64,000 bases of DNA from a virus (lineage: Duplodnaviria; Caudoviricetes). This document shows positions 39,886 through 63,236 of the stretch, piece by piece; position 1 is the first letter of the stretch, and every line of letters begins with the position of its first letter. The notes under the pieces were generated by a model that was not told where the DNA came from, did no database searches, and was given only the letters and a program-made list of their open reading frames with translations. The DNA is taken from positions 1,274-65,273 of the IMG/VR virus record IMGVR_UViG_3300028833_000158; one strand, given 5' to 3'. The position numbers and the translations under genes are program-made.

Positions 39886-39900
39886 AAGGAGGTGATATGT

Positions 39901-40965: not shown

Positions 40966-40980
40966 AAAGGAGGTTAAATT

Positions 40981-41145: not shown

Positions 41146-41182
41146 TGGTCCTCTTCCTTTTATATTTTTGGAAAGGAGTAAA

Positions 41183-41971: not shown

Positions 41972-41976
41972 TTCAT

Positions 41977-42001
41977 CGCAAAAAATTCATATATTATTAT
42001 G
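41977..42001 (+). promoter_or_regulatory. Promoter-like motif copy
   Basis: CGCAAAAAATTCATATATTATTATG; G41978 to ATG 41999. Confidence 0.7.
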
Positions 42002-42045
42002 AGGCAACTAACAACCAGCTCACATTCACACGAAAGGAGAATAAA

Positions 42046-42357: not shown

Positions 42358-42433
42358 AGAGCGTTGTTAGCCTCCATTTAGAGAGATCAGAAATGGTCTC
42401 TCTATTTTATTTTTTCTTTTGAAAGGAAATGCT

Positions 42434-43099: not shown

Positions 43100-43111
43100 A
43101 AGGAGTAAAAA

Positions 43112-44038: not shown

Positions 44039-44050
44039 AGGAGAATCAGC

Positions 44051-44650: not shown

Positions 44651-45152
44651 GTATTTTAGATCCATATGTCGATTAGTTTGGGATGACCGATTCGGAAAAA
44701 GTTATCGACTGCTTTTTGAGCATTTATATTCTAGGGACTTTGAATGGTCTATTATCATGGATCGTAACAGAGCTATAGATGGTATTTGTTTGCGAGAAAA
44801 GTATGGATGTAGTAACAGCTTATTGAACGAACCTTGCTCAGTTCTAGAAATGCTAATAGCTTTAGCAGCCAGAATGGAAAATCAGATTATGTCTAGTTTC
44901 GATGCTGGAGATAGAACTGGGCAATGGTTCTGGACAATGATTAATAATCTTGAGTTAAATAAATTGGATGACGATCATTTTAACGCAGAGTTGGCTGATT
45001 ATTACATAGATCGATTTCTTTATAGGGAATACGAGTTTGATGGGTCTGGTGGAGGTTTATTCGTATTAGATAGACCTCCGCAAGATTTAAGAGATGTTGA
45101 AATATGGATACAAGCTAATTGGTATCTTGGAGAAATGGATGGATATTTGTAG
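44622..45152 (+). CDS. Conserved hypothetical phage protein
   Basis: F.W.I.MD.NRA.DG..LR, CSVLEMLIALA.R, QWFW.M..NL.L, Y..DG.GG.F, EIW.Q..WY. Confidence 0.8.
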   Translation: MTMNLSQSSKYFRSICRLVWDDRFGKSYRLLFEHLYSRDFEWSIIMDRNRAIDGICLREKYGCSNSLLNEPCSVLEMLIALAARMENQIMSSFDAGDRTGQWFWTMINNLELNKLDDDHFNAELADYYIDRFLYREYEFDGSGGGLFVLDRPPQDLRDVEIWIQANWYLGEMDGYL

Positions 45153-45166
45153 ACGGAGGTATATTA

Positions 45167-48100: not shown

Positions 48101-49069
48101 CATCCTCACAGCATAATAGCCGAAAGACTGTTCGGAGATTACACTGATATTTTCGAAGAACTTGTTAATGCTCGTGTAGACATAAAACACAAGGACTTCG
48201 ATAAGGCATGTCAGTTGTTTGGTGGAAGGCTTGCTAAATACTTGACAGATCCTGATCAGGCAAAGATGTTGGCTCAGGCACTGAAGATAGCAATTAATTC
48301 GGTGTATGGCCTGACTGCTGCTAAGTTTGCTAATCCGTTCAGAGATCCCAGGAATGAAGACAACATTGTTGCAAAACGTGGAGCTCTGTTTATGATCGAC
48401 CTGCAGCATGCTGTAGAAGACCTTGGATACAAAGTCATACACATTAAGACTGATTCAATTAAGATACATAAGCCCGATGAATTCATTGAGAACTTCGTTA
48501 ATAGATTCGGTGAATGCTATGGATATTCTTTCGAAGTTGAAGATGAGTGGGATCGTATCTGTCTTGTAAATGATGCAGTATTCATAGGTCACACTGAAGA
48601 AGGATGGAAAGCTACAGGTGCACAGTTCCAGCAGCCTTATGTGTTTAAGACTCTGTTCACTCACGAGCCTATAACATTCGATGACCTTTGCGAGACTAAA
48701 GCAGTGTCTAAAGGCGCTTTATATTTGGACTTTGAAGATGGTACAGAGCCTAGGTTTGTTGGTAGAGTTGGTCAGTTCTGCCCTGTAAAGCATGGTGGTG
48801 TTCTATATCGTGTTGATAACGGCAAGAACTACGCAGCAGCTGGAACAAAAGGATACCATTGGCTTGAATCTGAAGTAGTTAAACAGCTTGGTAAGGAAGA
48901 TGACATTGATATTTCTTACTATGAAAATTTAGCACATGATGCAATGGGTGCCATAATCTCATTCGGATATTTTGATGACTTTGTTGATGTGTCAAAGCCT
49001 TATGAGTTTGAACCATTCATGAATGAACCAGTTGAGAACGGTGTTCCTCTGGAATTACCGTTTAAATAA
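45167..49069 (+). CDS. Fused SF3 helicase / AEP primase / 3'-5' exonuclease / family B DNA polymerase
   Basis: GSAGTGKG P-loop; VIDFD and ELSKSGQGIHLHY (AEP); FYDCEVF, GFN..RYD, YCDND (exonuclease); FDVASQHP, KIAINSVYG, HIKTDS (PolB). Confidence 0.9.
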   Translation: MLDFMMVTTRAPKRGTIEIYPKFIVGNSKDLMIRGGDFYAIWNDETGLWSTDEVDALRMIDRELDTFAEKHREEYQGDTVRIMHMWDADTGSIDRWHKYCQKQTRDNYHMLDDKIIFSDANTKRSDYASKKLPYALVPCDIPNYTKLSTTLYSEEELHKLEWAIGAIITGDARKIQKFEVLYGSAGTGKGTMLDIIAQLFEGYYCTFEAKALGSANASFALEPFKNNPLVAIQFDGDLSRIEDNTRLNSLISHEEMIVNEKFKSSYASRFKCFLFMGTNKPVKITDAKSGLIRRLIDISPTGNKIPVREYKKLVDGIKFELGGIACHCRDVYLDDPDCYEGYIPINMMGESNDFYNFIEDSANVFSAQEAITLKQAWSMYKEYCDEAKIPYPFSMRVFKSELKNYFNTFEERYTFEDGTRTYNCYIGFKLKFDKPQVKTKKDSESWLKFGEYDSVFDLMAKDYPAQYATSEGIPSKKWQNNKTLLGELNTSKLHYVKVPTEHIVIDFDIPDEHGNKCLAKNLEAAAKWPPTYAELSKSGQGIHLHYIYTGDPTKLSSIYDEHIEIKVFNGNSSLRRQLSKCNNLPIAKISSGLPQKGDKVTNFEGLANEKSIRTSIKNNLEKKVHPGTKPSIDFIAKILNDAYESGIKYDVSDMRTAVLGFAAGSTHHASECIKMVNQMKFKSKEILDDDIIDEVPIEPLDPTLIFYDCEVFPNLLLINWKRQGHGEKVVRMINPKPSEVEELMKHRLVGFNCRRYDNHILWARMMGYSEEQLFRLSQRIISGDKDAFFSEAYNVSYTDIYDYCAKKQSLKKWEIELGIRHMELGLPWDQPVPKELWEKVAEYCDNDVISTEAVWNATQGDFLAREILADLAGGTVNDTTNTLTTRLIFGNNKKPQSSFNYRFLGDKPKGKSFTWKDVISYASGKTDHKPEGQVWFDGYTYVNGVSSYRDVAEVGEGGRVYANPGSYGHAKTFDVASQHPHSIIAERLFGDYTDIFEELVNARVDIKHKDFDKACQLFGGRLAKYLTDPDQAKMLAQALKIAINSVYGLTAAKFANPFRDPRNEDNIVAKRGALFMIDLQHAVEDLGYKVIHIKTDSIKIHKPDEFIENFVNRFGECYGYSFEVEDEWDRICLVNDAVFIGHTEEGWKATGAQFQQPYVFKTLFTHEPITFDDLCETKAVSKGALYLDFEDGTEPRFVGRVGQFCPVKHGGVLYRVDNGKNYAAAGTKGYHWLESEVVKQLGKEDDIDISYYENLAHDAMGAIISFGYFDDFVDVSKPYEFEPFMNEPVENGVPLELPFK

Positions 49070-49092
49070 TTTATATTTTAAGGAGATTAAAA

Positions 49093-49620
49093 ATGAGCAG
49101 AAATTTACTCGAAATCGAAAATGCACAGATCATGTTTAAGAACTTCTCTGGACAGGAGAAGCAGGCTATGGTTAACGGTCGTATGAAGATCGTTAACGAA
49201 GCAGGAAAAAGGAACTTTAATGTTCTTATCGATCCCGAAAAGAGCACTATTTACTGGAATGGCGAGCTTGTTACAAATCCTGACTTCGGTCAGGAACTCG
49301 CCAACCTCGGTTTTAATATCATACTGAGACCCGGAAAAGAAGAGGGAGAAGGACCTCAGTACAGGCTCCCTGTTCATGTTGGCTTTGACAACTTTGTTCC
49401 TGATCTCTATCTTGTTACCGGAAACAAGAAGGTCAAACTTGACGCAGAAAGCATCGATTGCCTTGACAACGCCGATATCATCACGGCTGATATATCTATA
49501 AATAACGGTAGATCGTACGTCGGGAATGACGGTAAGGAAAAGGTTAAGGCTTGGTGTAATATTGGATATTTCACCATTGAGCAGAACCGTTTTGCTTCCA
49601 AGTACGATTTTGCTGAGTGA
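49093..49620 (+). CDS. Probable single-stranded DNA-binding protein
   Basis: IENAQI.FKNFSG.E, N.AG.RNF.V, LD.ADI..ADI.I, aromatic/acidic C-terminus; follows the polymerase. Confidence 0.6.
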   Translation: MSRNLLEIENAQIMFKNFSGQEKQAMVNGRMKIVNEAGKRNFNVLIDPEKSTIYWNGELVTNPDFGQELANLGFNIILRPGKEEGEGPQYRLPVHVGFDNFVPDLYLVTGNKKVKLDAESIDCLDNADIITADISINNGRSYVGNDGKEKVKAWCNIGYFTIEQNRFASKYDFAE

Positions 49621-49643
49621 AAATAATTCATACCTTCTTATGA
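49619..49643 (+). promoter_or_regulatory. Promoter-like motif copy
   Basis: GAAAATAATTCATACCTTCTTATGA; then the GGGTAATAGTGCCC hairpin, identical to the one after copy 33331. Confidence 0.7.
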
Positions 49644-49680
49644 GGGTAATAGTGCCCGGTTTAATAAGGAGGCAAAAAAC

Positions 49681-49983
49681 ATGACACTAAATGCAATACA
49701 GGTTTTGAGCTCTTTAGCAGAGATCGAAAGACTGCTCGACAGAGAAAAAGACGAATGCAGAAACTATATGCACGATATCGTTATTCCACAGACAATGGAT
49801 ATAATGAAACTCGCGCAAGGTGACCTGCTGGACGTCGGAATTGAAGATGTCGAGAAGATCATCGAGATTCGTGCAAAGAGTGAAGAGAAACTCGAACGCA
49901 TGAAGTTTCTGGCTGAATTGTCAGAAAAAATGGCAGAATTGACACATGCACTATGTCCTAGCAAAGAGGATGGAGTCCAGTAA
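49681..49983 (+). CDS. Hypothetical helical protein
   Basis: AAGGAGG RBS; stop in the CAGTAATG hairpin loop. Confidence 0.7.
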   Translation: MTLNAIQVLSSLAEIERLLDREKDECRNYMHDIVIPQTMDIMKLAQGDLLDVGIEDVEKIIEIRAKSEEKLERMKFLAELSEKMAELTHALCPSKEDGVQ

Positions 49984-50024
49984 TGGGCTCTTCCTCTTCT
50001 TTCTGCCCAAAAAGGAGACCACAA

Positions 50025-50504
50025 ATGAAAATAAAAATGATCTTGCTCTTAACTGCAGCATTTATATTTTTATGCGGATTTACTCAAAAGACAGAATCAC
50101 CGAAAGCCATTTATACTGACACAGGTGTTGTTGTACTTGACGGTCGCTTAGAAACTCTAGGACTAACTAGGCAGGAACGTTATGAACTTCGAGCAATCGC
50201 TGAATCTGAAGCTCTAAACCAAGGCATTAAAGGAATGGCCCTAATTATGAGGGTCGTCCTTAATCGCCGCGAGTATGGTGGCTATGGAGAAGACATACAT
50301 TCTATTATATTTGCATATAAACAGTTCTGGACCTATGGTATGCCGCAATCATACGAAAGTTTAAGTAAGGAATCTGAATTAGCACTCATATGGGTAATGA
50401 ATGGCTGGGACGAATCTGAAGGCGCTTTATATTTTTGTGCTTACGGATGGAATGGACCCGAACATTTATTCAAATATGGTGATCATTGGTTTAGTAAAAA
50501 GTGA
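50025..50504 (+). CDS. SleB-like cell wall hydrolase (Hydrolase_2) with signal peptide
   Basis: Signal-like MKIKMILLLTAAFIFLCG; AESEA.NQ...GMA....VVLNR, I...KQF, GALYF, YGDHWF. Confidence 0.75.
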   Translation: MKIKMILLLTAAFIFLCGFTQKTESPKAIYTDTGVVVLDGRLETLGLTRQERYELRAIAESEALNQGIKGMALIMRVVLNRREYGGYGEDIHSIIFAYKQFWTYGMPQSYESLSKESELALIWVMNGWDESEGALYFCAYGWNGPEHLFKYGDHWFSKK

Positions 50505-50511
50505 GGGAAGT

Positions 50512-50694
50512 ATGAGTATATTTAACATTAAGAAAAAGAAAATAGTAAGTGTTATTAAATGCTGTAACTGCGGAAGAAAGTTAGGAGAGTATGTAAAGAC
50601 TGCAGAGATCGAAGATGGTACAGATGATATTTACAATGTTTGCCCGGATTGCTATAAGATAATGATAGATAAGATATCTGGAAAGGAGAAATAA
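50512..50694 (+). CDS. Zinc-finger small protein
   Basis: CCNC...CPDC. Confidence 0.6.
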   Translation: MSIFNIKKKKIVSVIKCCNCGRKLGEYVKTAEIEDGTDDIYNVCPDCYKIMIDKISGKEK

Positions 50695-50912
50695 TGTTTG
50701 TAAAGTTTACTCTGGTTGAAAAAGGAAAAGAACTCAAGATCCTTGCTAACGCTAATTTAATTGACTATGTAGTTGACAATGACGATAAGGAGAAAGATAC
50801 CTGTATACTCATGCTCACAACTGGCATGAAGGGTATTGTTAAGGGTTCTTATGATGATATTTGTAGGCAGGTTATAGCTGCTACAAAGCAAAAGGTACCC
50901 ATAACAAAATGA
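50694..50912 (+). CDS. Hypothetical protein
   Basis: AAAGGAG RBS. Confidence 0.65.
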   Translation: MFVKFTLVEKGKELKILANANLIDYVVDNDDKEKDTCILMLTTGMKGIVKGSYDDICRQVIAATKQKVPITK

Positions 50913-50915
50913 TAT

Positions 50916-50942
50916 TTGCAAAAAATCCATCTTCTATTATGG
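50916..50942 (+). promoter_or_regulatory. Promoter-like motif copy
   Basis: TTGCAAAAAATCCATCTTCTATTATGG; G50918 to ATG 50939. Confidence 0.7.
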
Positions 50943-50970
50943 ACAATAATGTCCAGAAAGGAGATAAAAC

Positions 50971-51321
50971 ATGACAGTAAACAAATATTTAACTACCCGA
51001 TATTGGAAAAGGCGTAATTTGCATAGTGCGCCTTCAGAGAGAGAACTCAGAGATAATTACAACGATGAGGTATTTTATGTTATCGAAAGTTCTGATGTTG
51101 AATGGGTCTTTGAACCGGAATCAGATAAGACGTTTCCAAAGATCAAAGTAAAGCATCAGACTATGGGACATATGTACTACGTGTATCTCGTTCAACTCGA
51201 AGGCGACTTGTATTTTACGAGGTCCATTGGGTCAGAAAGGGAAAACCGCGATTTATTAGCGGCAGGTTTTATGAAAATCCCGAAAGACGTATTGGCAAAG
51301 GAAACACCTTTAACAGTGTAA
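50971..51321 (+). CDS. Hypothetical protein
   Basis: Motif, GGACAATAATGTCC hairpin, AAAGGAG RBS. Confidence 0.7.
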   Translation: MTVNKYLTTRYWKRRNLHSAPSERELRDNYNDEVFYVIESSDVEWVFEPESDKTFPKIKVKHQTMGHMYYVYLVQLEGDLYFTRSIGSERENRDLLAAGFMKIPKDVLAKETPLTV

Positions 51322-51378
51322 CCAATCAAGAGAGATTGATATTTATCAGTCTCTCTTATTCTTTCGAAAGGAGGTAAT

Positions 51379-51579
51379 ATGGTCACGGTAATTAATCAAA
51401 ACGTGCCGATATGTCCAAAATGTGCTTCAGGTATGCACAAGAGGTATAACATGTTCGGTATTGTTTATATTTGTAACGACAATAACCACATCTGGAGAGT
51501 TGTGGATCGCAACAAGAACGATAATGAAATAGTAGTAACTGACAACCATCTCGAAGCGGAGGCGTATAATGGAGAATGA
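51379..51579 (+). CDS. Zinc-ribbon-like small protein
   Basis: CPKC...YIC...H; AAAGGAGG RBS. Confidence 0.65.
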   Translation: MVTVINQNVPICPKCASGMHKRYNMFGIVYICNDNNHIWRVVDRNKNDNEIVVTDNHLEAEAYNGE

Positions 51580-51763
51580 TATTTGTGAAGGCGATGATGT
51601 AATCATATCAGGTAAAGTTACTGCCGTACTTGATATTGACCTTGGCGTACGATATCTTGTAGTATTGCCTAGTAATCGTCGTGTAATTGTAGGGGAAATG
51701 GATATTAAGTCATACCGTCCGGAAGTAAAGGTCGATGGTGAAGATCACAGAAAGGGGAATTGA
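51569..51763 (+). CDS. Hypothetical (SH3/KOW-like) protein
   Basis: EGDDVII.GKV.AV pattern; GGAGG RBS. Confidence 0.55.
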   Translation: MENDICEGDDVIISGKVTAVLDIDLGVRYLVVLPSNRRVIVGEMDIKSYRPEVKVDGEDHRKGN

Positions 51764-52001
51764 TATTATGGTAAATGATCCTACTGTAAAAGAAGTTGTT
51801 TATGGAATGTCAAAGAGAAAGAGACTGGCACTATTCAGAATTATCGAATGTGTTGCAGATAAAAAGCTAATCAAAACAACTGATCTTCTTGTCTATGAAA
51901 GAAAGATGAATAATCAAGAACAGGAAGTAACTCGTTTTCTTATGGCACAGTTATTTACAAGAGTAGGAGGACAAGATGAACCGAGCAGAGAGAAGATCTA
52001 A
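51735..52001 (+). CDS. Hypothetical protein
   Basis: ORF in an overlapping chain. Confidence 0.55.
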   Translation: MVKITERGIDIMVNDPTVKEVVYGMSKRKRLALFRIIECVADKKLIKTTDLLVYERKMNNQEQEVTRFLMAQLFTRVGGQDEPSREKI

Positions 52002-52248
52002 AGGTAACAGACGTAGGAATGATATTTACCAGAAGTATCGTAAGTTTCTGGAGATCGTGGACGACGTAAAGACTTACACATGTGAGACTTGTGGTACGAC
52101 GTTTGGTATCATAGCCTATAAAGATGGAAGGAAATCAGGTACAGCTCAGGCAGGTTTTGCTGAGCCTTGTGAGAAATGTAAGGAGATGATGGCTAATGGA
52201 GATTACGGACAAGGAATTAATAAACCTTCAGAAACAGCAGGCGATTGA
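51976..52248 (+). CDS. Zinc-binding hypothetical protein
   Basis: MNRAERR start; CETC...CEKC; AGGAGG RBS. Confidence 0.65.
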   Translation: MNRAERRSKGNRRRNDIYQKYRKFLEIVDDVKTYTCETCGTTFGIIAYKDGRKSGTAQAGFAEPCEKCKEMMANGDYGQGINKPSETAGD

Positions 52249-52432
52249 AACATTAGAAGATGTGCTTGACTTACTTGATCTGGAAGACCTTGATATTCAC
52301 AGAGAGCTCGAGTTTAAGTTTCTGAACAGACGTGGTAAAGATATGTACGCCGGTATGGATAAGATCCTCAATAGAACTCGTAAGAGAATACGTGAGGCTA
52401 TTGTTTATATTAAGGAGGATATGGATGAATAA
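52196..52432 (+). CDS. Hypothetical protein
   Basis: ORF in an overlapping chain. Confidence 0.55.
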   Translation: MEITDKELINLQKQQAIETLEDVLDLLDLEDLDIHRELEFKFLNRRGKDMYAGMDKILNRTRKRIREAIVYIKEDMDE

Positions 52433-52856
52433 CGATATGGACGCTCAATTCTTATGTAAGGATTGTTCGAGATTCAACCAGTGCCAGTACTACGACAGAA
52501 GAAAAGGTGATTCCTACATCTGTAAATATTTTCACTTGGCAGAAACCTATGGCGTGACTAATGGTGATGTGATGAGGGTGCTGTTTCCGAATTGCGTGCA
52601 AAACGAGAATAGGAATTGGGTAGGTACAAACATTGACGGTTATACAACGTTTTCAACAGTGTGGTGGAATGCAACTTATAAGAAAGAATGTATCAAGACA
52701 TTGCCGACAGTCGAGAAAGAAAGTTGTCGTTGTAATACTTGCAAGAATAATGATGATGAATTAAGTGGCGAATGCTACGAATGTGTCAAAGGGATATTTG
52801 ACCACTATGAAAAAGAGAATAAAACGGAGGTAGAAAATGGACGAACGAATGATTGA
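52425..52856 (+). CDS. Cys-rich hypothetical protein
   Basis: AAGGAGG RBS; CKDC..C, TNGDV.R.LFP, CNTC...CYEC. Confidence 0.65.
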   Translation: MNNDMDAQFLCKDCSRFNQCQYYDRRKGDSYICKYFHLAETYGVTNGDVMRVLFPNCVQNENRNWVGTNIDGYTTFSTVWWNATYKKECIKTLPTVEKESCRCNTCKNNDDELSGECYECVKGIFDHYEKENKTEVENGRTND

Positions 52857-53055
52857 ACAATTACAAAAAGACAATGTAAGAAAGCAGATAATGGATTTTA
52901 TTCCCAACAATCTCGGAATTAACCTTTGTTCTGTCGAGGATATTATTGTACGCAGACAGAAAAATGGAGAAATCACAAAAATCATCATTGATTTTATTCC
53001 CGAAGAACCCGAACCTAAACCAATGGTTGGTTTAGATGGTGCTGTTTTAGCGTGA
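52837..53055 (+). CDS. Hypothetical protein
   Basis: GGAGG RBS. Confidence 0.6.
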   Translation: MDERMIEQLQKDNVRKQIMDFIPNNLGINLCSVEDIIVRRQKNGEITKIIIDFIPEEPEPKPMVGLDGAVLA

Positions 53056-53081
53056 TGCAGAGCAGATATGAGAGGTGAAGA

Positions 53082-53174
53082 ATGCTTGACAAAATCCTAA
53101 TGGTCGCAATTGGCCTTCTTTGTATTTGGCTCGTGTGGTTGCTGATAATGATAATTAAAGGAGATAAGAAATGA
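53082..53174 (+). CDS. 30-aa membrane peptide
   Basis: MLDKILMVAIGLLCIWLVWLLIMIIKGDKK; GAGGTG RBS; ATGA overlap with the next gene. Confidence 0.5.
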   Translation: MLDKILMVAIGLLCIWLVWLLIMIIKGDKK

Positions 53175-53650
53175 GCTACGAAACAAACGATAAGATGGTA
53201 AGTCATCCGGATCATTATAAGTCCGGGAAGTATGAGGTCATTGATATTATTGACGAGTTTACTAAAGACTTGTCAGGAACTGAGGCTGTATGTACGGCTA
53301 ATGCAATTAAGTATATTCTGAGATGGAAGAAAAAGAACGGCATTCAGGATGTGAAGAAAGCTATTTGGTATCTCACACATCTGGTTGAGCATTTGGAATC
53401 TCAGGTGATTCATGCGGATCCAGAATGTGCTAGGAAGATGGAAGAGTTTGAGAATTCTATTGATATTTCCAGAGAGCTCGAATTTGCACAGACTGGCAAA
53501 TGGCCGGAAAGGGAAGTGGAGTATGATGGGCCTGACGAGCACTGTAGAACTTGCATGTCTAGGTTTGAAACGCCGGAGAATGACGAAAAGTGCATTAACT
53601 GTTATGGAAGAGAGAATTATGAACCAGATCTGAATAAGGAGAGCAACTAA
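53171..53650 (+). CDS. DUF3310 / T7 gp1.7-like nucleotide kinase domain protein
   Basis: MVSHPDHY.SG..EVID.I, NAIKY..RW.KKNG.QD.KKA.WYL. Confidence 0.8.
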   Translation: MSYETNDKMVSHPDHYKSGKYEVIDIIDEFTKDLSGTEAVCTANAIKYILRWKKKNGIQDVKKAIWYLTHLVEHLESQVIHADPECARKMEEFENSIDISRELEFAQTGKWPEREVEYDGPDEHCRTCMSRFETPENDEKCINCYGRENYEPDLNKESN

Positions 53651-53844
53651 TGAGCCTACAAGACAAGATAACTAATGCTAAACCCACGACGTTTCTTACA
53701 GATGGGTTGACACAGGAAGAAGTAAAGCAGTGTGTTGAGAGCGGTAGGAAAGTCACAATAGATGACGATGAAGCTCCAACTACACCTATGAGAGTTGTAG
53801 ATATTCCGGGACAGGAAAATAAAATCTACGTGCCAATTAATTGA
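53650..53844 (+). CDS. Hypothetical protein
   Basis: AAGGAG RBS. Confidence 0.55.
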   Translation: MSLQDKITNAKPTTFLTDGLTQEEVKQCVESGRKVTIDDDEAPTTPMRVVDIPGQENKIYVPIN

Positions 53845-53869
53845 TTAAATAGGAAAAGAGGTATGAATT

Positions 53870-54601
53870 ATGGAAGAAGAAAATAAACTTTGTTGCAACT
53901 GCAAATTTGTGACAGTACTTTATAATGAAGAGCCTTGCAAGTCTTGTCATTTGAGATCAAATTGGCAGAGTAATGTCAAATTCAAGACGGGTGATTTAGT
54001 GGTTTCGAAAAACGACCCTTGTAGAAAAAACCTTTATGTTTATTTGCGTAATAAATGGGTTCTGCGCGTACCAAATTATGTCACTACTAGGTCAAGTTAT
54101 ATTATATCATCAGCCGGTTATCGTGGTTCCGAAATGATAGATAAACTTATACGTAATTCTAACGCCGAATGTGAATGGTTAGATGATCTAGAATATGCCA
54201 GCCCGGAAATTATTACGCAACACGATGACAGAGCGGAGAATCTTTATATTCCTGAGCCTTTTGGCGAATGGTTTCCTAAATTAATTGAAGAGGAACGTGA
54301 TCAGAAACAGAAGATAGCATTAGATGAAGTATATAGCGCTAAAGAATTCTTCACATTTTTTGATAGGAAACCAAAAGTATTCACCACGCCAAACATGATC
54401 AAGAACGTCATCTTCAGTGATCCGGCTACTATTATATTCTGGGAGGACGGTACTAAGACCGTTGTGAAAACTCAGGATGGCGAGAAGTATGATAAGGAAA
54501 AAGGATTTGCAATGGCGGTATGTAAGAAGGTATTTGGTAATGAAAGAGACTACTATAATGTCTTTAAACGTTGGATGAGAAAAGGAAAAGAGGTAAAATA
54601 A
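53870..54601 (+). CDS. Hypothetical protein with conserved phage C-terminal domain
   Basis: IKNVIF.DPATI.FW.DGTKTVVK...E.YD.EKG.AMA..KK..GN. Confidence 0.75.
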   Translation: MEEENKLCCNCKFVTVLYNEEPCKSCHLRSNWQSNVKFKTGDLVVSKNDPCRKNLYVYLRNKWVLRVPNYVTTRSSYIISSAGYRGSEMIDKLIRNSNAECEWLDDLEYASPEIITQHDDRAENLYIPEPFGEWFPKLIEEERDQKQKIALDEVYSAKEFFTFFDRKPKVFTTPNMIKNVIFSDPATIIFWEDGTKTVVKTQDGEKYDKEKGFAMAVCKKVFGNERDYYNVFKRWMRKGKEVK

Positions 54602-54602
54602 T

Positions 54603-55202
54603 ATGGAAATAGCATTTTATATTCTGTTAGTGAGCTGGGTAATACTGCTTGCGTGTTGTATAGTTGCTATATCGCGTTTTAAGAAGGCTAATGACAGTCT
54701 TGACACCAGCCTTGATACGGTGATTGAGCGTAATGAAGAGATTCAGAGCCTTATGAATCAGCTTGATGTCGCCGAGCAGGACATAGACTTTTGGAAAGAT
54801 ACATGCGACAAGATGCAGTGGACAATAAATGATCTCAATAAACGCATAGGTAACATGAAAGCCACTGAAGAAAACGGAAGTATTCTATATGTGGATAAGG
54901 GGAACATTGAGTATGTCAATGCAGCTATCGATATAAGCGCTAATGTAATAAAAGATATTACTGAAGGTAGACTTGATATTGATCAAGTAGAAGACTCATT
55001 ACGTTTTAACATTAAGCGTGTGATGATGGACGAACTGCTGTCACATGCTAAGTTCTATGTGACTTATGATATTTCAAGCAATTCTTATAGTTTTGTAGTA
55101 AGGATTCCTATTGTTGCGTTAAATGGTTCAGAGCGGGAATACAGTAAATGTGCTGGGTATCCGCTTACAAATATTCTGCTTGAAAAGGTTAAGGAGGAAT
55201 AA
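54603..55202 (+). CDS. Membrane-anchored coiled-coil protein
   Basis: N-terminal TM helix followed by heptad repeats. Confidence 0.65.
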   Translation: MEIAFYILLVSWVILLACCIVAISRFKKANDSLDTSLDTVIERNEEIQSLMNQLDVAEQDIDFWKDTCDKMQWTINDLNKRIGNMKATEENGSILYVDKGNIEYVNAAIDISANVIKDITEGRLDIDQVEDSLRFNIKRVMMDELLSHAKFYVTYDISSNSYSFVVRIPIVALNGSEREYSKCAGYPLTNILLEKVKEE

Positions 55203-55203
55203 T

Positions 55204-55473
55204 ATGTTACGTTTAGATTTAAATGATATCAACGAAACAGTCTTATTTGTTAATCCCGTGAATGGTGTTAAGATTCTTAAACAAAAAGATGATGATTCTG
55301 AAGAAACAACCTATGTATTATTAATCGATACGGGTGACATCGTGTGCTATGCTGAATATAATTCAGAAGACATTCGCGATGCGGTTTATGGGTATGTCCT
55401 GAATAAGATTAATGAATACTTATTTCAACAGATTGAAGCTGCTCAGTTGCGTTGTAAGGAGGAAACATGTTAA
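55204..55473 (+). CDS. Hypothetical protein
   Basis: AAGGAGG RBS. Confidence 0.6.
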   Translation: MLRLDLNDINETVLFVNPVNGVKILKQKDDDSEETTYVLLIDTGDIVCYAEYNSEDIRDAVYGYVLNKINEYLFQQIEAAQLRCKEETC

Positions 55474-55703
55474 AAGCTATAGTAACGGTGATGGACGAAA
55501 ATGATAGAATCATTCAGGCTAACAGATTGATATTTGAGACTGATCCTTTTGGTACACCTGTTGGCTGTGGCATTGAGCATGACTTTCATTTTAAGATCAT
55601 CACTGCAGATGAAGAGCTTATACGTAAGGTCACAGAAGAAGGTCTTAAACTTAGTGCTGAAGAAATTCATAAAATGATAATTCATAAAATGATGGAGGAA
55701 TAG
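55467..55703 (+). CDS. Hypothetical protein
   Basis: AAGGAGG RBS. Confidence 0.6.
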   Translation: MLKAIVTVMDENDRIIQANRLIFETDPFGTPVGCGIEHDFHFKIITADEELIRKVTEEGLKLSAEEIHKMIIHKMMEE

Positions 55704-55704
55704 A

Positions 55705-56118
55705 ATGAACAAGGATGAGATTTTGATAATTATGTATCCTTTTTGGATGAAGAATAATCAACTTAGTTCAATGTATGAAAACATTCTTAAACAAAGAGCA
55801 AATAATCTTATACTTCTTCCGGATTACTGTAAGGTTGTTACAGCACCTAAAGATGTCGAGATTAAGACAGAGATGGAGAATGACGATTCATCTTCACTTT
55901 GGTTACTTGTTGATAATCCGAATTATTCTCCATTTGATCGTAGAACTAGACCAGTAAGTCTGAAATGTGACGTATGTCATAGGCGTATAGACAAATGGGG
56001 TGATGATTATTTGAGATGCCCTTATTGTGGTAAGAAGCATACGTTTGGAGCGGAAGAGGAGAAGGAATATACTAATGAAGAATTAGATGAAGCTTTTGAT
56101 AATGGAAGAGGAGGTTGA
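55705..56118 (+). CDS. Zinc-ribbon protein
   Basis: CDVC...CPYCG; GGAGG RBS. Confidence 0.65.
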   Translation: MNKDEILIIMYPFWMKNNQLSSMYENILKQRANNLILLPDYCKVVTAPKDVEIKTEMENDDSSSLWLLVDNPNYSPFDRRTRPVSLKCDVCHRRIDKWGDDYLRCPYCGKKHTFGAEEEKEYTNEELDEAFDNGRGG

Positions 56119-56124
56119 TATTTT

Positions 56125-56484
56125 ATGGGATACAGACCTACTATATATGTAAATCGTAGACCGAAATTGGAACTTGGTAAATTTTATGGGTATGTAAACA
56201 TGGATAATCTTAAGTCAGTTAAGTGGCTCGAGGATCACGGTAAAATAGAGCTGGATGAGATGTTTGCTGGATACGGACCGGAAATAGATTTTACTGCTGA
56301 TGAGTTTCGTGAATTCTGGGATCTTTATGTTCAGGATATTAACGAATATGTTTGGAAAGAAGACGATTGGATAAGATATGACGAACCATTCAATCCTGAT
56401 TATTATCCTCATGCCTGGAAAAGAGGAACTTTCAAAGAAAACTTATATGATACAGACGATGTAAAGACTATTAAGTGGTTTTAA
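56125..56484 (+). CDS. Hypothetical protein
   Basis: AGGAGG RBS; MGYR...Y, GKFYGY. Confidence 0.7.
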   Translation: MGYRPTIYVNRRPKLELGKFYGYVNMDNLKSVKWLEDHGKIELDEMFAGYGPEIDFTADEFREFWDLYVQDINEYVWKEDDWIRYDEPFNPDYYPHAWKRGTFKENLYDTDDVKTIKWF

Positions 56485-56499
56485 GGAGGATTGATATTC

Positions 56500-56686
56500 T
56501 ATGCGGTGGCGGAATAGGTAGACGCAAATACAAATTCATGAGGATTCCAGCAGCTAACGGTTGGCAGTCATGCGAGGGTTGAGACTACGTGCCGAAAAAG
56601 CGGGACCAGGTGGAGATCATTAAACTCAAATCATGAAGAAAAAGACCGTATGTAAGGTGACAGAAATTCAAATCCTTACCCGCATA
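56500..56686 (+). ncRNA. Oversized tRNA-like element (Leu/Ser-type D arm, no canonical anticodon arm)
   Basis: Perfect TATGCGG/CCGCATA acceptor stem, TG-GCGGAATAGGTAGACGC D arm, GTAAGG/CCTTAC T stem with TTCAAAT; ~125-nt structured insert; no encoded CCA. Confidence 0.6.
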
Positions 56687-56705
56687 TTAAAAGAAAGGAG
56701 GAACA

Positions 56706-56909
56706 ATGAAAGTTTCCGAACTATATAATGAAATGCTTAAGTTATTGGAAGACGGAAAAGGAAATTATGAAATTATGATTCGCGTTGCGGACGATGACGA
56801 AAAAAGGGATTTGATATCTCATATTGACAATGTTAAATCTTTTTCTTCAAAAGTTGGATATGTTGAACTGACATCTGTTAATAACGCGTATTTAGATTGG
56901 AGAGAATGA
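56706..56909 (+). CDS. Hypothetical protein
   Basis: AAAGGAGG RBS. Confidence 0.6.
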   Translation: MKVSELYNEMLKLLEDGKGNYEIMIRVADDDEKRDLISHIDNVKSFSSKVGYVELTSVNNAYLDWRE

Positions 56910-56942
56910 CATTTGGTTCAAAGTAAGGAGGATTGATATTCT

Positions 56943-58103
56943 ATGATCGATCTTGACAAAATGCTTTACGATCATCAGAAGAAAGCAATCCGTAATATGA
57001 GGAACGGTTGTATACTTAATGGTGGAGTGGGGTCTGGGAAATCTCGGACCTCACTTGCTTACTATTACCAGAAAGAAAAAGATCGTCCTCTTTATATTAT
57101 CACCACTGCTATGAAGCGTGATTCAAGAGAGTGGGAAGAAGAGGTTTTATATTTCTTTCCTTGTAAAGCCACGGCAATAGACAGTTGGAATAATATTAAG
57201 AAATACACGGATGTAAAAGATGCTTTCTTTATATTTGACGAAGACCGTGTTACAGGCTATGGCGCATGGGTTAAGGCATTTCTCAAGATAACAAAGTCTA
57301 ACCATTGGATAATATTATCAGCTACGCCTGGAGACACATGGTCTGATTATATTCCTGTATTCATAGCTAATGGTTTCTATCGTAATAAGACAGAATTCAC
57401 GCAAAAGCATGTCATATGGAATCGTTATACTACCTTTCCTAAAATAGATGGTTATGTTCATACTGGATATTTAAATGGCCTTCGTAGGAAAGTTCTAGTT
57501 AATATGGAAGACGAAAGGAAGACAGTACAGCACCATGAAGATATTTATTGTACGTATCCGATTACGGATTATAAGCGTGTTATTAAAGATCGCTGGGATA
57601 TTTTCAAAGAGGAACCATTCCAGAATGCAGGAGCGATGTGCTATTGCCTCAGGAAAGTTGTTAACTCAGACCCTAGCAGACTTGATAAGGTATATGATAT
57701 TACAGAACGGAAGGGAAAGGCTATCATATTCTACAACTACGATTACGAACTTGAGCGACTTAAGGCTGGATTTGCAGATGGATATTTTGAAGTTGCGGAA
57801 TGGAACGGACACCGACATCAAGAAATTCCTGTTGAGAGTGAAAGATGGATATACTTGGTGCAATACAATTCTGGGTCAGAAGGATGGAATTGTGTCTTAA
57901 CTGACACTATTATATTTTACTCGCAGACATACAGCTATAAGCAATTGAAGCAGGCGTGTGGTAGAATAGATAGGATTAATACTCCTTACCATGATTTATA
58001 TTTTTATCATCTTAAGAGTCGTTCGGGCATTGATCTGGCAATCAGTCGTGCACTTGCTGATAAGAAGAACTTTAATGAGAATGATTTTGTTGTTGGGATG
58101 TAG
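56943..58103 (+). CDS. SF2 (SNF2/DEAD-like) helicase
   Basis: LYDHQ, GGVGSGKS, IFDE, ILSATP, EGWN, QACGRIDR. Confidence 0.9.
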   Translation: MIDLDKMLYDHQKKAIRNMRNGCILNGGVGSGKSRTSLAYYYQKEKDRPLYIITTAMKRDSREWEEEVLYFFPCKATAIDSWNNIKKYTDVKDAFFIFDEDRVTGYGAWVKAFLKITKSNHWIILSATPGDTWSDYIPVFIANGFYRNKTEFTQKHVIWNRYTTFPKIDGYVHTGYLNGLRRKVLVNMEDERKTVQHHEDIYCTYPITDYKRVIKDRWDIFKEEPFQNAGAMCYCLRKVVNSDPSRLDKVYDITERKGKAIIFYNYDYELERLKAGFADGYFEVAEWNGHRHQEIPVESERWIYLVQYNSGSEGWNCVLTDTIIFYSQTYSYKQLKQACGRIDRINTPYHDLYFYHLKSRSGIDLAISRALADKKNFNENDFVVGM

Positions 58104-58142
58104 TAAATAATTCATGCCTTCTTATGAAAGGAGGAAATATTT

Positions 58143-58403
58143 ATGTTTGAAAACAAAGCTTTTGAAAAGATTTATTACTCGAGATTTATAGCATCTTGGT
58201 ATAATTCTGGAGGAAAGCGTATCAGATCATACGTTGACAGTGAAAAGAGACCTAACGATTTTGTTAGGTGGCTTCGCACGTTAACTATAAATGATAAGCA
58301 AATTCCGGAAGATGTAATCAAGGATATTCTCGAAATGGCAACAAATGGCAAGGCAGAGTTGGAATGGAACTTAAACAAATACTTAAAAGAGATTGGGCAG
58401 TAA
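58143..58403 (+). CDS. Conserved hypothetical protein
   Basis: I.YSRFIASW...GG, F..WL..L, I..MA.NGK.ELE; stop in the CAGTAATG hairpin loop. Confidence 0.75.
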   Translation: MFENKAFEKIYYSRFIASWYNSGGKRIRSYVDSEKRPNDFVRWLRTLTINDKQIPEDVIKDILEMATNGKAELEWNLNKYLKEIGQ

Positions 58404-58463
58404 TGCCCTTTCCCTTTTATTTTGTAAATAATTCACTTCCTATTATGAAAGGAGGTGATGAAT

Positions 58464-58655
58464 ATGACTTATGGAGAATTCAAAGACGTAGTTAAAAAGA
58501 CTTATCCGAATAGCGAGAATCATTTTGCAATTGGAGGCGGAATATTATTAAAGATGCCTTCATGGAAAGATGAAGAGATTAACGCATTGACGGTAAAAAG
58601 TTATGAACAGGATAGCTACGACGATGAAAACTGGTTTTTTGTCACAGCAAAGTAA
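58464..58655 (+). CDS. Hypothetical protein
   Basis: AAAGGAGGTG RBS. Confidence 0.65.
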   Translation: MTYGEFKDVVKKTYPNSENHFAIGGGILLKMPSWKDEEINALTVKSYEQDSYDDENWFFVTAK

Positions 58656-58741
58656 CAAATTAAGAGGGCTTGATATTTGATCAGGCTCTCTTATTCTTTT
58701 CGTAATTAATTCACTTCCTATTATGAAAGGAGGTAATTATT

Positions 58742-58957
58742 ATGACTAATAAAAGTTTTGAAAACACAATGATGGCACTTATTGAAGTTGGAAAACTGAT
58801 TAAGTTTGACGAGACCAGCAGTGATTACACTGATGATCTTTGTGACAAGTTAGCAGAAGTAACTAAAATATTGTCATCTATGTATGGTGATCAACAACTT
58901 AGAAAGAGTAAAAAACTCAATAAAAAACTTGAAGAAATATACGGAGATTGGGGCTGA
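58742..58957 (+). CDS. Hypothetical protein
   Basis: AAAGGAGG RBS. Confidence 0.65.
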   Translation: MTNKSFENTMMALIEVGKLIKFDETSSDYTDDLCDKLAEVTKILSSMYGDQQLRKSKKLNKKLEEIYGDWG

Positions 58958-59019
58958 AATATGCCCCTTTCCCTTTTATTTTTTATCGAAGGTTTATCAT
59001 TTGGGCTATTTTTGGGTCA

Positions 59020-59290
59020 AAAAATCGTGGTTAAAAATGTGGTTAAAAATAACCATTTGGTTAAAAATATTTAACCATTTGCAAAATTTTTTGGAATTTT
59101 TGGTTAAAAATGTAAAAATTTTTAACCAAATGGTTAAAAATAAAAAATTTTTAACCAGGCTGAAACCCAGTATTCATGCGGGTTTCAGAGGTTTTTGGTT
59201 AAAAGGTTAAAAATATTTTATAATTAATGTGAAAAAAAAATATGTATATATAATAATATAGAAAAATTTTTAACCATTTAACCAAAATGA
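59020..59290. repeat. AT-rich iteron-like region, candidate replication origin
   Basis: GGTTAAAAAT at 59029, 59041, 59059, 59102, 59132 and later, inverted TTTTTAACC copies interleaved, plus a long A/T-only stretch. Confidence 0.65.
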
Positions 59291-59313
59291 TATTTTTCAC
59301 GATTTTTAGAGTT

Positions 59314-59369
59314 TCGCAAAAAAATGTTGCCCTTTTATGGGAGAGAAGGTTATATGATGACCTTTTCTC
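59314..59369 (+). promoter_or_regulatory. Promoter-like motif plus 5' hairpin upstream of the nuclease/RNAP operon
   Basis: TCGCAAAAAAATGTTGCCCTTTTATGG (G59316 to ATG 59337), then GAGAAGGT..ACCTTTTCTC stem. Confidence 0.7.
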
Positions 59370-59411
59370 TTATTTTTATTTTTGTGTTTGGATTTTGGGA
59401 AGGAGACAAAC

Positions 59412-60266: not shown

Positions 60267-63236
60267 ATGAATGAGTATGAAAGTTTCAAAGCTTATGAAG
60301 AGCTTGAAGAGGGTTTATATTTAGAGCATTACGGAACTCCTAGACATTCTGGTAGATATCCTTGGGGCTCGGGAAAAAATCCTTATCAGCACGACAGCGA
60401 AGACTGGTTAGCAAGAGTAGAAAAGCTTCGTTCAAGAAAAAATATGGATGATAAGCAGATTGCTCGAGAAATGGGATGTACGATTAACCAGTTAAGAGCT
60501 TGGGAATCAGTTGCTAAAAACGAAAGAAAGAATGCTCAGATCACTTGGTGTAAGAAACTTGCATCTGAAGGAAAATCAGTTGCAGAGATAGAGCAGATAA
60601 CTGGAATCAAAGACAGAACAGTAAGAAACTATCTTAACAGCAATAGAGATGTTAAACCTTTGCAGGCTCAGGCAACAGCTAAGTTCTTGGAAGAACAGGT
60701 TGATAAGAAAGGTTATATTGATATTGGTAAAGGTGTAGAGAAAGATATTGTAGCAGTTGATGGAACTCTTGGAATTACATCTAACAAGCTTAAAGAAGCT
60801 ATGGAAATAATGAAAAGAGATGGCTATGATATTTACACCAATCTTAAGGTTCCTCAAGCAACTAATCCAAAGAATATGACAACTCGAGTAGTTGCATGTA
60901 AGTTCCCTGAAGGAATGACAACTAACGAGAAATACAAAGAGCTGTATAAAGCAAGAGATAATGGTGATATTCAGTCTGTTGCCGAGTATCATTCAGATGA
61001 TGCTGGTCTTACATGGAATGCTCCTAAACCTCCTGTATCTATTGATTCAAATAGAATAAAAGTTGTTTATGCTGAAGATGGAGGAATTGAGAAAGATGGT
61101 GTCATCGAAATAAGAAGAGGCGTTGCAGACTTAAGTCTTGGTGATTCTCATTATGCTCAGGTTCGTATTGCTGTTGATGGAACTCATTATCTTAAAGGTA
61201 TGGCAGTTTATAGAGATGGCAAAGACATGCCTGATGGAGTTGATATTTTGTTTAACACCAACAAGCATAGTGACAAGAAGATGATCGATGGTGATAATGG
61301 TGTTCTTAAACCAATGAAAGAAGATCCAGCTCATAAAGGAAAGATAGATCAGAGTAATCCATTTGGAGCTGTTATTATGCGTGGTGGACAATCTGATTAT
61401 GAGGATCCTAAAACTGGTGAAGTTAAACAGTCTGCTATAAATAAGATACATGATCAGGGTGATTGGGGAGAATACTCTAAAGATCTTCCTGCTCAGTTCT
61501 TATCTAAACAGAACACAGATCTCATAAAGAAACAGCTTCAGTATTCTATTAATGACATGCGTAATGAGTTCAACGATATTATGGCGATCGATAATCCTAC
61601 GATTCGTAAATATTATTTGGACAAGTTTGCATCAAGTTGTGATTCAAAAGCCGTGCATCTTAAAGCTTCTGCTCTTCCTAGGCAGCAGTATCAGGTTATT
61701 CTTCCTGTTCCGTCACTTAAGGACAATGAGATCTATGCTCCTAATTACAGAGATGGAGAACAAGTAGCGTTGGTAAGGTTTCCTCATGGTGGAACATTTG
61801 AGATACCTATATTGACTGTTAATAATAAGAATCCAGAAGCTAAGAAGTTACTTGGCACTGATCCTTCTGATGCTGTCTGCATAAATAAGAATATTGCAGA
61901 TCGATTGTCAGGTGCAGACTTTGATGGAGATACAGCAATTGTCATACCAACAGGCAGAGGAAACAAGGTTAAGATAACTAACTCTGATCCTCTTAAAGGT
62001 CTTGTTGGTTATGATGCGAAAGAAGAATATGCAACTCATGTCGAAGAGAAGAATGGTAAGAAAGTATATGTCAATAAGAATGGCGTTGTAATAAAACCCA
62101 TGGATGAGAGGACAACTCAGATAGAAATGGGTAAAGTTACAAATCTTATTACAGATATGACTGTTGCTGGTGCTCCTCTTGATGACATTGCTAAAGCTGT
62201 TAGGCATTCTCAAACTGTAATCGATGCTAAGAAACACCATCTTGACTATAAACAATCAGAGATAGACAATGACATAGCATCATTAAAGGTTATGTATCAG
62301 AGAAGAATAGATGAGAATGGTGATCTTCACATTGGTGGTGCATCTACACTGTTGTCTAGAGCTAAGCATGAGAAAGCATATCCTGAAACCAAAGGTCAAG
62401 TACATTACAACCAGATAGGAAAGCCTTGGTATAATCCGGACCTTCCTGAAGGAGCATTAATACTTAAAGAATCTGGTAGAACATTCGAAGAGACTAAGCC
62501 TGTCAAGGATGCTGATGGTAATGTAATGTACTATGAGGATACTGGTAAGCCTATAAAGGCTAAGACTGGTAAGGTTAAGCTAGCCACAGTAGATAGACCC
62601 GAGATGGCTATGACTAATGATGCTCGTACCCTGTTGTCTGCTATAAGGAGCGAGCCGGAGCTACTATATGCGGACTATGCAAACCAACTTAAAGCATTAG
62701 CAAATGAGTCACGAAAGACAATCATGTACACAAAAGGTTTGCAGTACAATCCTTCAGCTAGGAAAGAGTATGCAGAAGAAGTAGCGTCCCTTAAGGAGAA
62801 GCTAGACAATGCCTATAGGCAGAAGCCTAAGGAGGCTAGAGCACAGAACATAGCCCTGGGTATAATCAATGAGAAGATTAAGGCAGACCCTAACCTTAGT
62901 AAGAAGGATGAGAAGAAGATTAGACAGTTAGCTATAGAAACAGCAAGGTCACAGGTGGGTGTTGATCGAAAAGATAGGGAAATCACACTCACAGATAGGG
63001 AATGGGCAGCAATACAAGCTGGTGCAATTAGTGATCATATACTTTCTGAGATACTAAACAATACAAATCCTGACAGTTTAAGAGAAAGAGCAACTCCTTC
63101 TAACAACAGAGCGTTGTCTGAATCTCAAATGGCAAGGATTCGTAACATGCATAATGGTTACTATACTATTGCAGAGATTGCTGATGCAATGGGTGTTTCT
63201 ACATCAACTGTTTCTAGAGTTTTGAAAGGAGCATAA
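60267..63236 (+). CDS. Putative single-subunit two-barrel (DFDGD) RNA polymerase with N- and C-terminal HTH domains
   Basis: QVR....YLKG (61158-61199), VRFPH (61776), LSGADFDGD (61911-61931); HTH-like segments at both ends; N-terminal YLEHYG tag. ATG 60267 fits the RBS better than TTG 60261. Confidence 0.75.
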   Translation: MNEYESFKAYEELEEGLYLEHYGTPRHSGRYPWGSGKNPYQHDSEDWLARVEKLRSRKNMDDKQIAREMGCTINQLRAWESVAKNERKNAQITWCKKLASEGKSVAEIEQITGIKDRTVRNYLNSNRDVKPLQAQATAKFLEEQVDKKGYIDIGKGVEKDIVAVDGTLGITSNKLKEAMEIMKRDGYDIYTNLKVPQATNPKNMTTRVVACKFPEGMTTNEKYKELYKARDNGDIQSVAEYHSDDAGLTWNAPKPPVSIDSNRIKVVYAEDGGIEKDGVIEIRRGVADLSLGDSHYAQVRIAVDGTHYLKGMAVYRDGKDMPDGVDILFNTNKHSDKKMIDGDNGVLKPMKEDPAHKGKIDQSNPFGAVIMRGGQSDYEDPKTGEVKQSAINKIHDQGDWGEYSKDLPAQFLSKQNTDLIKKQLQYSINDMRNEFNDIMAIDNPTIRKYYLDKFASSCDSKAVHLKASALPRQQYQVILPVPSLKDNEIYAPNYRDGEQVALVRFPHGGTFEIPILTVNNKNPEAKKLLGTDPSDAVCINKNIADRLSGADFDGDTAIVIPTGRGNKVKITNSDPLKGLVGYDAKEEYATHVEEKNGKKVYVNKNGVVIKPMDERTTQIEMGKVTNLITDMTVAGAPLDDIAKAVRHSQTVIDAKKHHLDYKQSEIDNDIASLKVMYQRRIDENGDLHIGGASTLLSRAKHEKAYPETKGQVHYNQIGKPWYNPDLPEGALILKESGRTFEETKPVKDADGNVMYYEDTGKPIKAKTGKVKLATVDRPEMAMTNDARTLLSAIRSEPELLYADYANQLKALANESRKTIMYTKGLQYNPSARKEYAEEVASLKEKLDNAYRQKPKEARAQNIALGIINEKIKADPNLSKKDEKKIRQLAIETARSQVGVDRKDREITLTDREWAAIQAGAISDHILSEILNNTNPDSLRERATPSNNRALSESQMARIRNMHNGYYTIAEIADAMGVSTSTVSRVLKGA

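Follow-up and report, generated by a model that had tools for sequence, protein, structure and literature searches.

Polymerase gene and its family

The DNA analysed here is a stretch of 64,000 nt (hereafter the window; positions 1,274 to 65,273 of IMG/VR record IMGVR_UViG_3300028833_000158) from a Caudoviricetes phage of the gut (sheep or rumen type) whose genome of 65,273 nt was 100% complete by CheckV. At 60267..63236 on the + strand it carries a gene for a predicted single-chain two-barrel RNA polymerase flanked by helix-turn-helix (HTH) domains, identified from the list of open reading frames (ORFs), the translation and a match to the protein family PHROG 4291. The ORF encoded 989 amino acids from the ATG at 60267, or 991 if the in-frame TTG at 60261 is used; an identical protein of 989 amino acids on record begins at the ATG, which agrees with the ORF boundaries proposed in an earlier reading of this DNA (hereafter the sequence-only reading). 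Residue numbers count from 60261. Residues 20-990 matched positions 11-907 of the 909 in the PHROG 4291 profile (E = 0), and an AlphaFold2 (AF2) model of the polymerase built from an alignment of 84 sequences reached a predicted local distance difference test score (pLDDT) of 87.8 and a predicted template modelling score (pTM) of 0.81.

The protein is a member of the family that comprises PHROG 4291, orf75 of Lactococcus phage 1706, the 'putative RNA polymerase' of FP_oengus and proteins of actinophages, all of which had the same full-length architecture, gene position and neighbours as in the window. Full-length matches were found by tblastn in 250 phage records, including phages of Arthrobacter, Gordonia, Streptomyces, Lactococcus and Faecalibacterium, with identities between 36% and 44% over 97% of the length, while the nearest metagenomic relative was 84% identical. 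An exhaustive search returned 817 family clusters (50% identity) with E < 1e-30. Most relatives were annotated as 'helix-turn-helix DNA-binding domain protein' and some as 'RNA-dependent RNA polymerase'. Among the full-length relatives, 263 of 266 kept an N-terminal conserved peptide, two N-terminal HTHs (HTH1 and HTH2) and a C-terminal HTH, so that the HTHs are an integral and nearly universal part of the enzyme chain and not a separate subunit.

The window protein is a new member of a family already known computationally, and its layout with HTHs at both ends has been published. The phage 1706 protein was recognized as one of five YonO-like families, listed separately from that of the SPbeta YonO (Ruprich-Robert and Thuriaux 2010; PMC2919709), and the family was later described as having HTH domains at both ends, a core resembling RNA-dependent RNA polymerases (RdRPs) and the DxDGD motif (Koert et al. 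2021; bioRxiv 10.1101/842583). In one related IMG/VR contig of 95,107 nt (G012), a pair of distinct full-length polymerase genes with HTH flanks (896 and 950 amino acids) were separated by about 65 kb. Either two related phages were joined in the assembly, or the phage has two paralogues, as P23-45 does.

Two-barrel catalytic core

A search of the PDB by sequence with the whole polymerase gave no match, and fold searches were therefore used. The two-barrel catalytic core was delimited with VIA-align and Foldseek at residues 255-825 (61023..62735, + strand). With VIA-align, QDE-1 (2j7n) aligned to this same range of the model with a Z score of 16.2 (386 residues, root-mean-square deviation (rmsd) 4.5), followed by RDR2 (Z = 13.2) and the phage proteins P74-26 gp62 and P23-45 gp64 (Z = 12.5-12.6), while beta-prime-type subunits of cellular and viral multisubunit enzymes aligned over residues 466-693 with Z of about 10.5. 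The Foldseek ranking was similarly headed by QDE-1 (E = 7e-10), then P74-26 gp62, P23-45 gp64 and plant RDR2.

The catalytic DFDGD motif lay at residues 553-557 (61917..61931, + strand), and its three aspartates (D553, D555 and D557) were invariant in the 84 aligned sequences, as were R506 and P508 (in RFPHGG), D279, R302 and K312. Two-barrel polymerases share an eight-residue signature composed of DxDGD, an R..P pair, and an Asp with two basic residues of the other barrel (PMC2919709). The invariant residues fit this signature, with D279, R302 and K312 placed in the first barrel by pattern and not by superposition. Judged by its predicted fold, the core is that of a two-barrel (double-psi beta-barrel) polymerase of the QDE-1/YonO clade, and the 'putative RNA polymerase' that the sequence-only reading had placed between the HTHs proved real, given the PHROG 4291 match, the alignment with QDE-1 and the invariant aspartates. 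The enzyme is most likely DNA-dependent.

HTH units at both ends

The three peptides that had been quoted as HTH-like all occurred in the translation, DKQIAREMGCTINQLRAW at residues 64-81, SVAEIEQITGIKDRTVRNYL at 106-125 and TIAEIADAMGVSTSTVSRVL at 969-988. AF2 gave a three-helix unit for each of these segments and two of the three scored above the Pfam cut-offs, so that, as far as the model goes, all three are true HTH folds, as the sequence-only reading had supposed.

HTH1 (residues 49-85; 60405..60515, + strand) was delimited from sub-threshold Pfam matches (HTH_3, 22.0 bits vs a cut-off of 23; MerR, 22.9 vs 28.2), the AF2 model and column conservation. Its three predicted helices (H49-60, H64-71 and H75-...) had pLDDT values of 80-84, and G61, I67, A68 and R79 were conserved. 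The recognition helix, starting at about residue 74, had the consensus TTTQLR (S-T-T-x-L-R across the family), with R79 present in 75 of the 84 sequences. HTH2 (residues 97-127; 60549..60641, + strand), delimited from Pfam matches, AF2 and conservation, matched Sigma70_r4_2 (PF08281; 6.1e-8, 28.8-32.6 bits vs a cut-off of 25.7) as well as HTH_23 and HTH_28. It was modelled with helices H107-114 and H118-126, the second being the recognition helix (residues 118-126, consensus E-S-[ST]-V-R-S-L-L), in which R122 was kept in 74/84 sequences. HTH1 and HTH2 were bridged in the AF2 model by a single helix of 28 residues (75-102), and a separate model of residues 46-160 reproduced the N-terminal helices.

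The C-terminal HTH (residues 950-990; 63108..63230, + strand), found with Pfam and AF2, exceeded the cut-offs of HTH_23 (8.1e-9), HTH_38 (6.9e-8) and HTH_7 (7.4e-7), and also matched LacI (1.8e-6). The predicted helices were H954-965, H970-977 and H981-989, with a recognition helix at residues 980-989 (STSTVSRVLK), in which S980 (81/84 sequences), S982 (72/84) and T983 (73/84) were conserved.

Relation to sigma factors

The HTHs had been called sigma-region-4-like in the sequence-only reading. The generic likeness of an HTH stood, as both are tri-helical units that could read an upstream box (e.g. sigma-70 region 4 bound to the -35 box in PDB 2h27); a specific kinship was not supported, since other HTH families scored as well or better. 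The Pfam families HTH_23, HTH_38 (IS30) and HTH_7 (resolvase) did at least as well as the sigma models, and the C-terminal HTH stayed below the cut-off of Sigma70_r4 (PF04545; 23.2 vs 24.1 bits). Profile searches of the PDB with the N-terminal pair and with the C-terminal unit were led by cI repressors, IS21 transposase (including IS5376), DeoR, TrpR-like proteins and UPF0122; sigma chains came behind cI, IS21 transposase, DeoR and TrpR-like HTHs, with E values of 0.04-0.9 at best. HTH2 superposed on region 4 of sigma-E with an rmsd of 2.3 Å over 43 residues, as it did on many other HTHs.

Foldseek searches with the N-terminal pair (residues 46-160) found no significant neighbour (E >= 0.15), the best of the non-significant ones being the bipartite domains of IS21 IstA, AraC and Tc3. 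The likeness to these proteins lies in tandem tri-helical HTHs that could contact successive major grooves; the window pair differs from them in its single bridging helix.

Region 2 defines the sigma-70 family, reads the -10 box and binds the core. No match to Sigma70_r2 (PF04542) was found at E <= 1 in the polymerase or in the complete 65,273-nt genome, in a search whose controls matched in 11 of 14 genomes, and the only region-4-like matches in the complete genome were HTH2 and the C-terminal HTH of the polymerase itself. The phage therefore has no separate factor of the sigma-70 type. Whereas sigma-70 factors are dissociable subunits of a multisubunit core, the HTHs of the window protein are fused in cis within one chain of 989 amino acids that has no region 2.

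Promoter-like motif in genomes with the polymerase

A promoter-like motif was sought in a set of 32 related genomes that comprised the window, 23 contigs from IMG/VR and 8 phages from GenBank. As unconstrained expectation maximization (EM) converged on T-runs or on codon periodicity in roughly one third of the genomes, it was replaced by a family position weight matrix (PWM) refined per genome, with a threshold set above the best score on the reverse strand. In Arthrobacter phage Mudcat, de novo EM recovered CGCGTAAAtTACAaGGGCTATAATGA, and the same plan was found in the window and in phage 1706.

All 32 genomes contained copies of the motif on the gene strand, between 5 and 29 per genome, with the consensus tTCGC[G/A]aaaaatACA-N4-CTATwATGa. 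They included gut Firmicutes phages and phages of Streptomyces, Gordonia, Arthrobacter, Bifidobacterium and Lactococcus. Variants of the plan were CACA...CTATAGTA in phage 1706, CGCG...CTATAATG in Mudcat and, in the window, T/CGCAAA and TTCA boxes with CTATTATG. The centres of the CGC and ACA boxes were 10 bp apart, which is one helical turn and places both boxes on one face of the helix. The TTCGCG box stood 14 bp from the TATAAT-like hexamer, a misfit to the geometry of sigma-70 promoters, with their spacing of 17 bp.

In the window, the PWM scan found 23 co-oriented copies (33325..59341, + strand; window consensus tttTcGcAAatttTTcat.TcCTaTTATGaa), which preceded early and replication genes, usually by a few bases before the ribosome-binding site, in about 23 gene units, and which are the presumed targets of the polymerase. 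All genes of the window were on one strand, and the same scan found no copy in positions 1-33000, the structural and lysis half, so that the late genes would need another route, such as the host polymerase or read-through across joined genome ends. The last copy (59310-59341) was directly followed by a hairpin of 17 pairs with a T-run (59337-59373; the two together at 59310..59373, + strand) and lay upstream of the polymerase operon, which comprised a nuclease-like gene (59382-59732), a DUF2800-type exonuclease gene (59704-60264) and the RNA polymerase gene, all on the + strand. Between 58000 and 64000, 22 sigma-70-like sites were found against 20.9 expected from shuffled sequence, which is not above chance, and the polymerase gene appears, from these site counts and the motif copy, to rely on a promoter of its own type.

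The hairpin and its T-run begin inside the last motif copy, at the start of the presumed operon transcript. This element could control expression of the polymerase, either as a terminator or attenuator in the leader or by stabilising the 5' end.

The motif also bears on whether the protein is the phage transcriptase at all. It might instead be an RNA-dependent polymerase or an HTH-guided enzyme that primes at the origin, the motif being read by the host RNA polymerase. The family goes under the name 'RNA-dependent RNA polymerase' in GenBank and PHROG, the closest fold is that of QDE-1, which uses both RNA and DNA templates, the gene lies in the replication module beside nucleases and iterons, and the motif holds a TATAAT-like core. 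The label, however, rests on homology, and DNA-dependent RNA synthesis has been proven for YonO, which belongs to the same clade (PMC5467207). Moreover, the conserved 'spacer' of the motif and its distance of 14 bp are unlike sigma-70 promoters, the same motif occurs across host phyla in every genome with the enzyme, and in the window it precedes the ribosome-binding sites of its gene units. An enzyme with no part in phage transcription is accordingly considered very unlikely.

Proposed promoter recognition in cis

The best-supported hypothesis, to which we assign a probability of roughly 0.45, is that the single-chain two-barrel polymerase reads its promoters in cis through the three fused HTHs. 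The polymerase would start transcription at the phage's own promoters of about 26 bp and need no additional sigma-like factor. The two tandem HTHs of the N-terminus would dock on the CGC and ACA boxes of duplex DNA, and the core would handle the CTATwATG initiation region. The C-terminal HTH, carried on the helical C-terminal (clamp-side) region, would add a less sequence-specific contact to DNA. A fuller version of this reading is put forward more tentatively. In it, the protein would be delivered with the virion, would act independently of factors and would be the first among two-barrel RNA polymerases to carry promoter recognition in its catalytic chain, the N-terminal pair reading CGC and ACA and the core melting and reading CTATwATG.

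The genome without a sigma factor, the conserved helices of HTH1 and HTH2, and the two boxes one turn apart make the idea of a sigma in cis somewhat more concrete. The built-in sigma factor of the sequence-only reading is in this sense a plausible, half-published hypothesis, not a demonstrated one.

The recognition helices of HTH1 and HTH2 were conserved across the same range of phages as the motif, each with its near-invariant Arg (R79 and R122). Covariation between HTHs and promoters, which the sequence-only reading had proposed as a check, was neither confirmed nor refuted in the 32 genomes; as the promoter is almost invariant, the comparison was uninformative. By eye, the table of 32 genomes showed no clean pairing of HTH and promoter. 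In partial Mantel tests with core divergence controlled, the upstream block correlated with HTH2 (r = 0.29, p = 0.004) and the 4-bp spacer with the C-terminal HTH (r = 0.25, p = 0.0095). Phages with two polymerases were rejected as a further covariation test, as the second ADFDGD match in one relative (G019) was not in a polymerase ORF and G012 may be an assembly of two phages.

Promoter distance increased with the distance between polymerase cores (r = 0.78 in the 32 genomes), which favours recognition in cis, although the same correlation is expected from shared descent alone. Several results weigh against recognition in cis. A non-HTH control region gave a partial Mantel signal that matched that of HTH2 (r = 0.27, p = 0.0125), and none of the signals survived correction for the 16 tests. 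Mutual information between 991 columns and each variable promoter position revealed no enrichment of HTH residues in the top columns, the top ranks being dominated by hypervariable columns. In the C-terminal recognition helix, the first half (S-x-S-T-V/L) was conserved, while positions 985-989 varied among actinophages with near-identical promoters (KETLS, HDALA, NNAMK, KAGLS and TSSMK), which argues against this helix reading the conserved promoter bases; from the alignment, the C-terminal HTH seems a poorer candidate for reading such bases. A literature search found no experimental, biochemical or transcript-mapping study of any family member.

Some of these results would be expected if the HTHs were anchors of weak or no specificity that raise affinity or processivity on duplex DNA, with promoter specificity residing in the core or in the family-specific domains (residues 131-254 and 826-945). 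Promoter specificity is carried by loops of the polymerase body in T7-type enzymes. Such an anchoring role would fit the failure to find HTH-promoter covariation, the variable C-terminal helix under constant promoters, and the position of the most conserved block, CTATwATG, at the presumed melting and start region, which is usually handled by the core. It would also fit QDE-1 and P23-45 gp64, which have no HTH flanks in the aligned ranges, gp64 still being associated in vivo with a promoter motif of its own (PMC10770324). The helices of HTH1 and HTH2, however, are conserved beyond the need of a non-specific anchor, and two upstream boxes one turn apart need a reader, for which the tandem HTH pair is the obvious candidate. 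Anchoring alone is on balance regarded as unlikely, and recognition of the promoter in cis is retained as the working hypothesis.

N-terminal peptide and probable virion delivery

Ahead of HTH1, a conserved peptide (LYLEHYGTPRHSGRYPWGSGKNPYQH; residues 19-47; 60315..60401, + strand) was recognized from invariant columns, entropy and pLDDT. It had the motif LEHYG..RHSGRYPWGSG..PYQH, with G25, S30, G31, R32 and G38 invariant in 84 sequences. Its mean column entropy of 1.27 (vs 1.47 in the core) made it the best-conserved part of the protein outside the active site, and it was predicted to be disordered (pLDDT < 50).

The peptide opens with YLEH[HY]G, a word common to the DUF7211 tags of three head-module proteins (573-590, 1667-1684 and 3269-3286). 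DUF7211-type tags also occurred in head-module ORFs of gut phages and of Gordonia, Arthrobacter and Bifidobacterium phages of the group. DUF7211 itself was rejected as the identity of the polymerase tag, which had no match to it at E <= 1 and had only the YLEH[HY]G word in common. From these similarities in sequence, the tag is a possible virion-targeting or processing signal.

Virion-delivered phage RNA polymerases include N4 vRNAP, crAss gp66 and P23-45 gp96. Enzymes of this kind would be expected to have their own promoters before the earliest genes, and before their own gene where it is served by no host promoter; this arrangement was found in the window, where the last of the 23 motif copies stands ahead of the polymerase operon. 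Delivery with the virion is also favoured by the phage 1706 homologue, orf75, which is labelled 'structural protein' in GenBank (a label not traced to its data) even though its gene is far from the morphogenesis genes. We infer that the polymerase is probably delivered with the virion, in which case promoter recognition would have to be built in, or else be provided by co-injected or host factors.

Right-end gene order and iterons

The gene order at the right end was common to the window (59382-63516) and Arthrobacter phage Mudcat (gp92-95, 45603-49390), with a small nuclease-like gene, a DUF2800/Cas4-type exonuclease gene, the polymerase gene and a small acidic ORF of about 85-89 amino acids without known family. 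Directly upstream of the polymerase operon, at 59028-59287, there were about ten TGGTTAAAAAT repeats in both orientations, unique to this spot in the genome. In most of the 32 relatives, likewise, iterons were clustered at a single spot of the genome, 1-3 kb ahead of the polymerase gene, and the iteron sequences differed among genomes (AAAGTGGGCA, the commonest, GTACGTACA, TGTGCACAA, GGCCAAAAA and others). The polymerase HTHs were considered as readers of the iterons and rejected, since three relatives (G001, G011 and G017) had identical recognition helices (STSTVSKYLK) and different iterons (AAAGTGGGCA, GTACGTACA and TGTGCACAA), which makes such a role unlikely. The cluster is probably a replication origin read by another protein.

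This arrangement bears on a further explanation of the HTHs, namely that, instead of selecting promoters, they tether the polymerase to phage DNA for packaging and ejection with the genome, for example by binding the iteron cluster or another site close to the right end. In nearly all complete relatives the polymerase gene is found at the right end of the genome, the iteron cluster lies close upstream of it in most genomes, the phage 1706 homologue is labelled a structural protein, and the N-terminal tag resembles that of head proteins. Against tethering at the iterons, these repeats differ between genomes with the same recognition helices and more likely form an origin with a reader of its own; besides, tethering and promoter reading are not mutually exclusive. 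As the explanation of the HTHs, tethering is judged improbable, and promoter reading in cis remains the preferred one.

Comparison with known polymerases

YonO of the Bacillus prophage SPbeta belongs, like the window protein, to the single-chain two-barrel RNA polymerases of the QDE-1/phage clade. It has been proven to be DNA-dependent and to transcribe phage genes from its own start site, while its promoter recognition is unknown (PMC5467207). YonO transcribes late genes, whereas the window motif stands ahead of early and replication genes. There is no report of HTH flanks in YonO, whose flanks were not examined here.

The polymerases of the Thermus phages P23-45 and P74-26 have each been tied to their own promoter motif by chromatin immunoprecipitation sequencing (ChIP-seq) and 5'-end mapping, and one of them is delivered with the virion (PMC10770324). 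P23-45 gp64 and P74-26 gp62 (non-virion) and gp96 (virion) are single-chain two-barrel enzymes like the window protein (PDB 8f72, 8f5m). They differ in their additions, as gp64 has about 590 amino acids and no HTH flanks and gp96 is fused to the tape measure protein, while the core in the window carries three HTHs and an N-terminal tag.

Implications

How promoters are found by two-barrel phage polymerases of a single chain (YonO, crAss gp66, P23-45 gp64 and gp96) has, to our knowledge, not been explained. The family offers a compact test system for this question, with an enzyme of about 110 kDa, a near-uniform promoter of about 26 bp and three separable HTH modules, and cultured members exist in Lactococcus phage 1706 and many SEA-PHAGES actinophages. 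Even if the HTHs do not read the promoter, hundreds of annotations as 'HTH DNA-binding protein' conceal an RNA polymerase. If they do, the family would be a natural orthogonal transcription system, in which a two-barrel core gains specificity without a sigma factor. It would reduce the sigma/TFB principle to a minimal form in cis, and phages with hosts in at least two bacterial phyla would have conserved this form together with its promoter.

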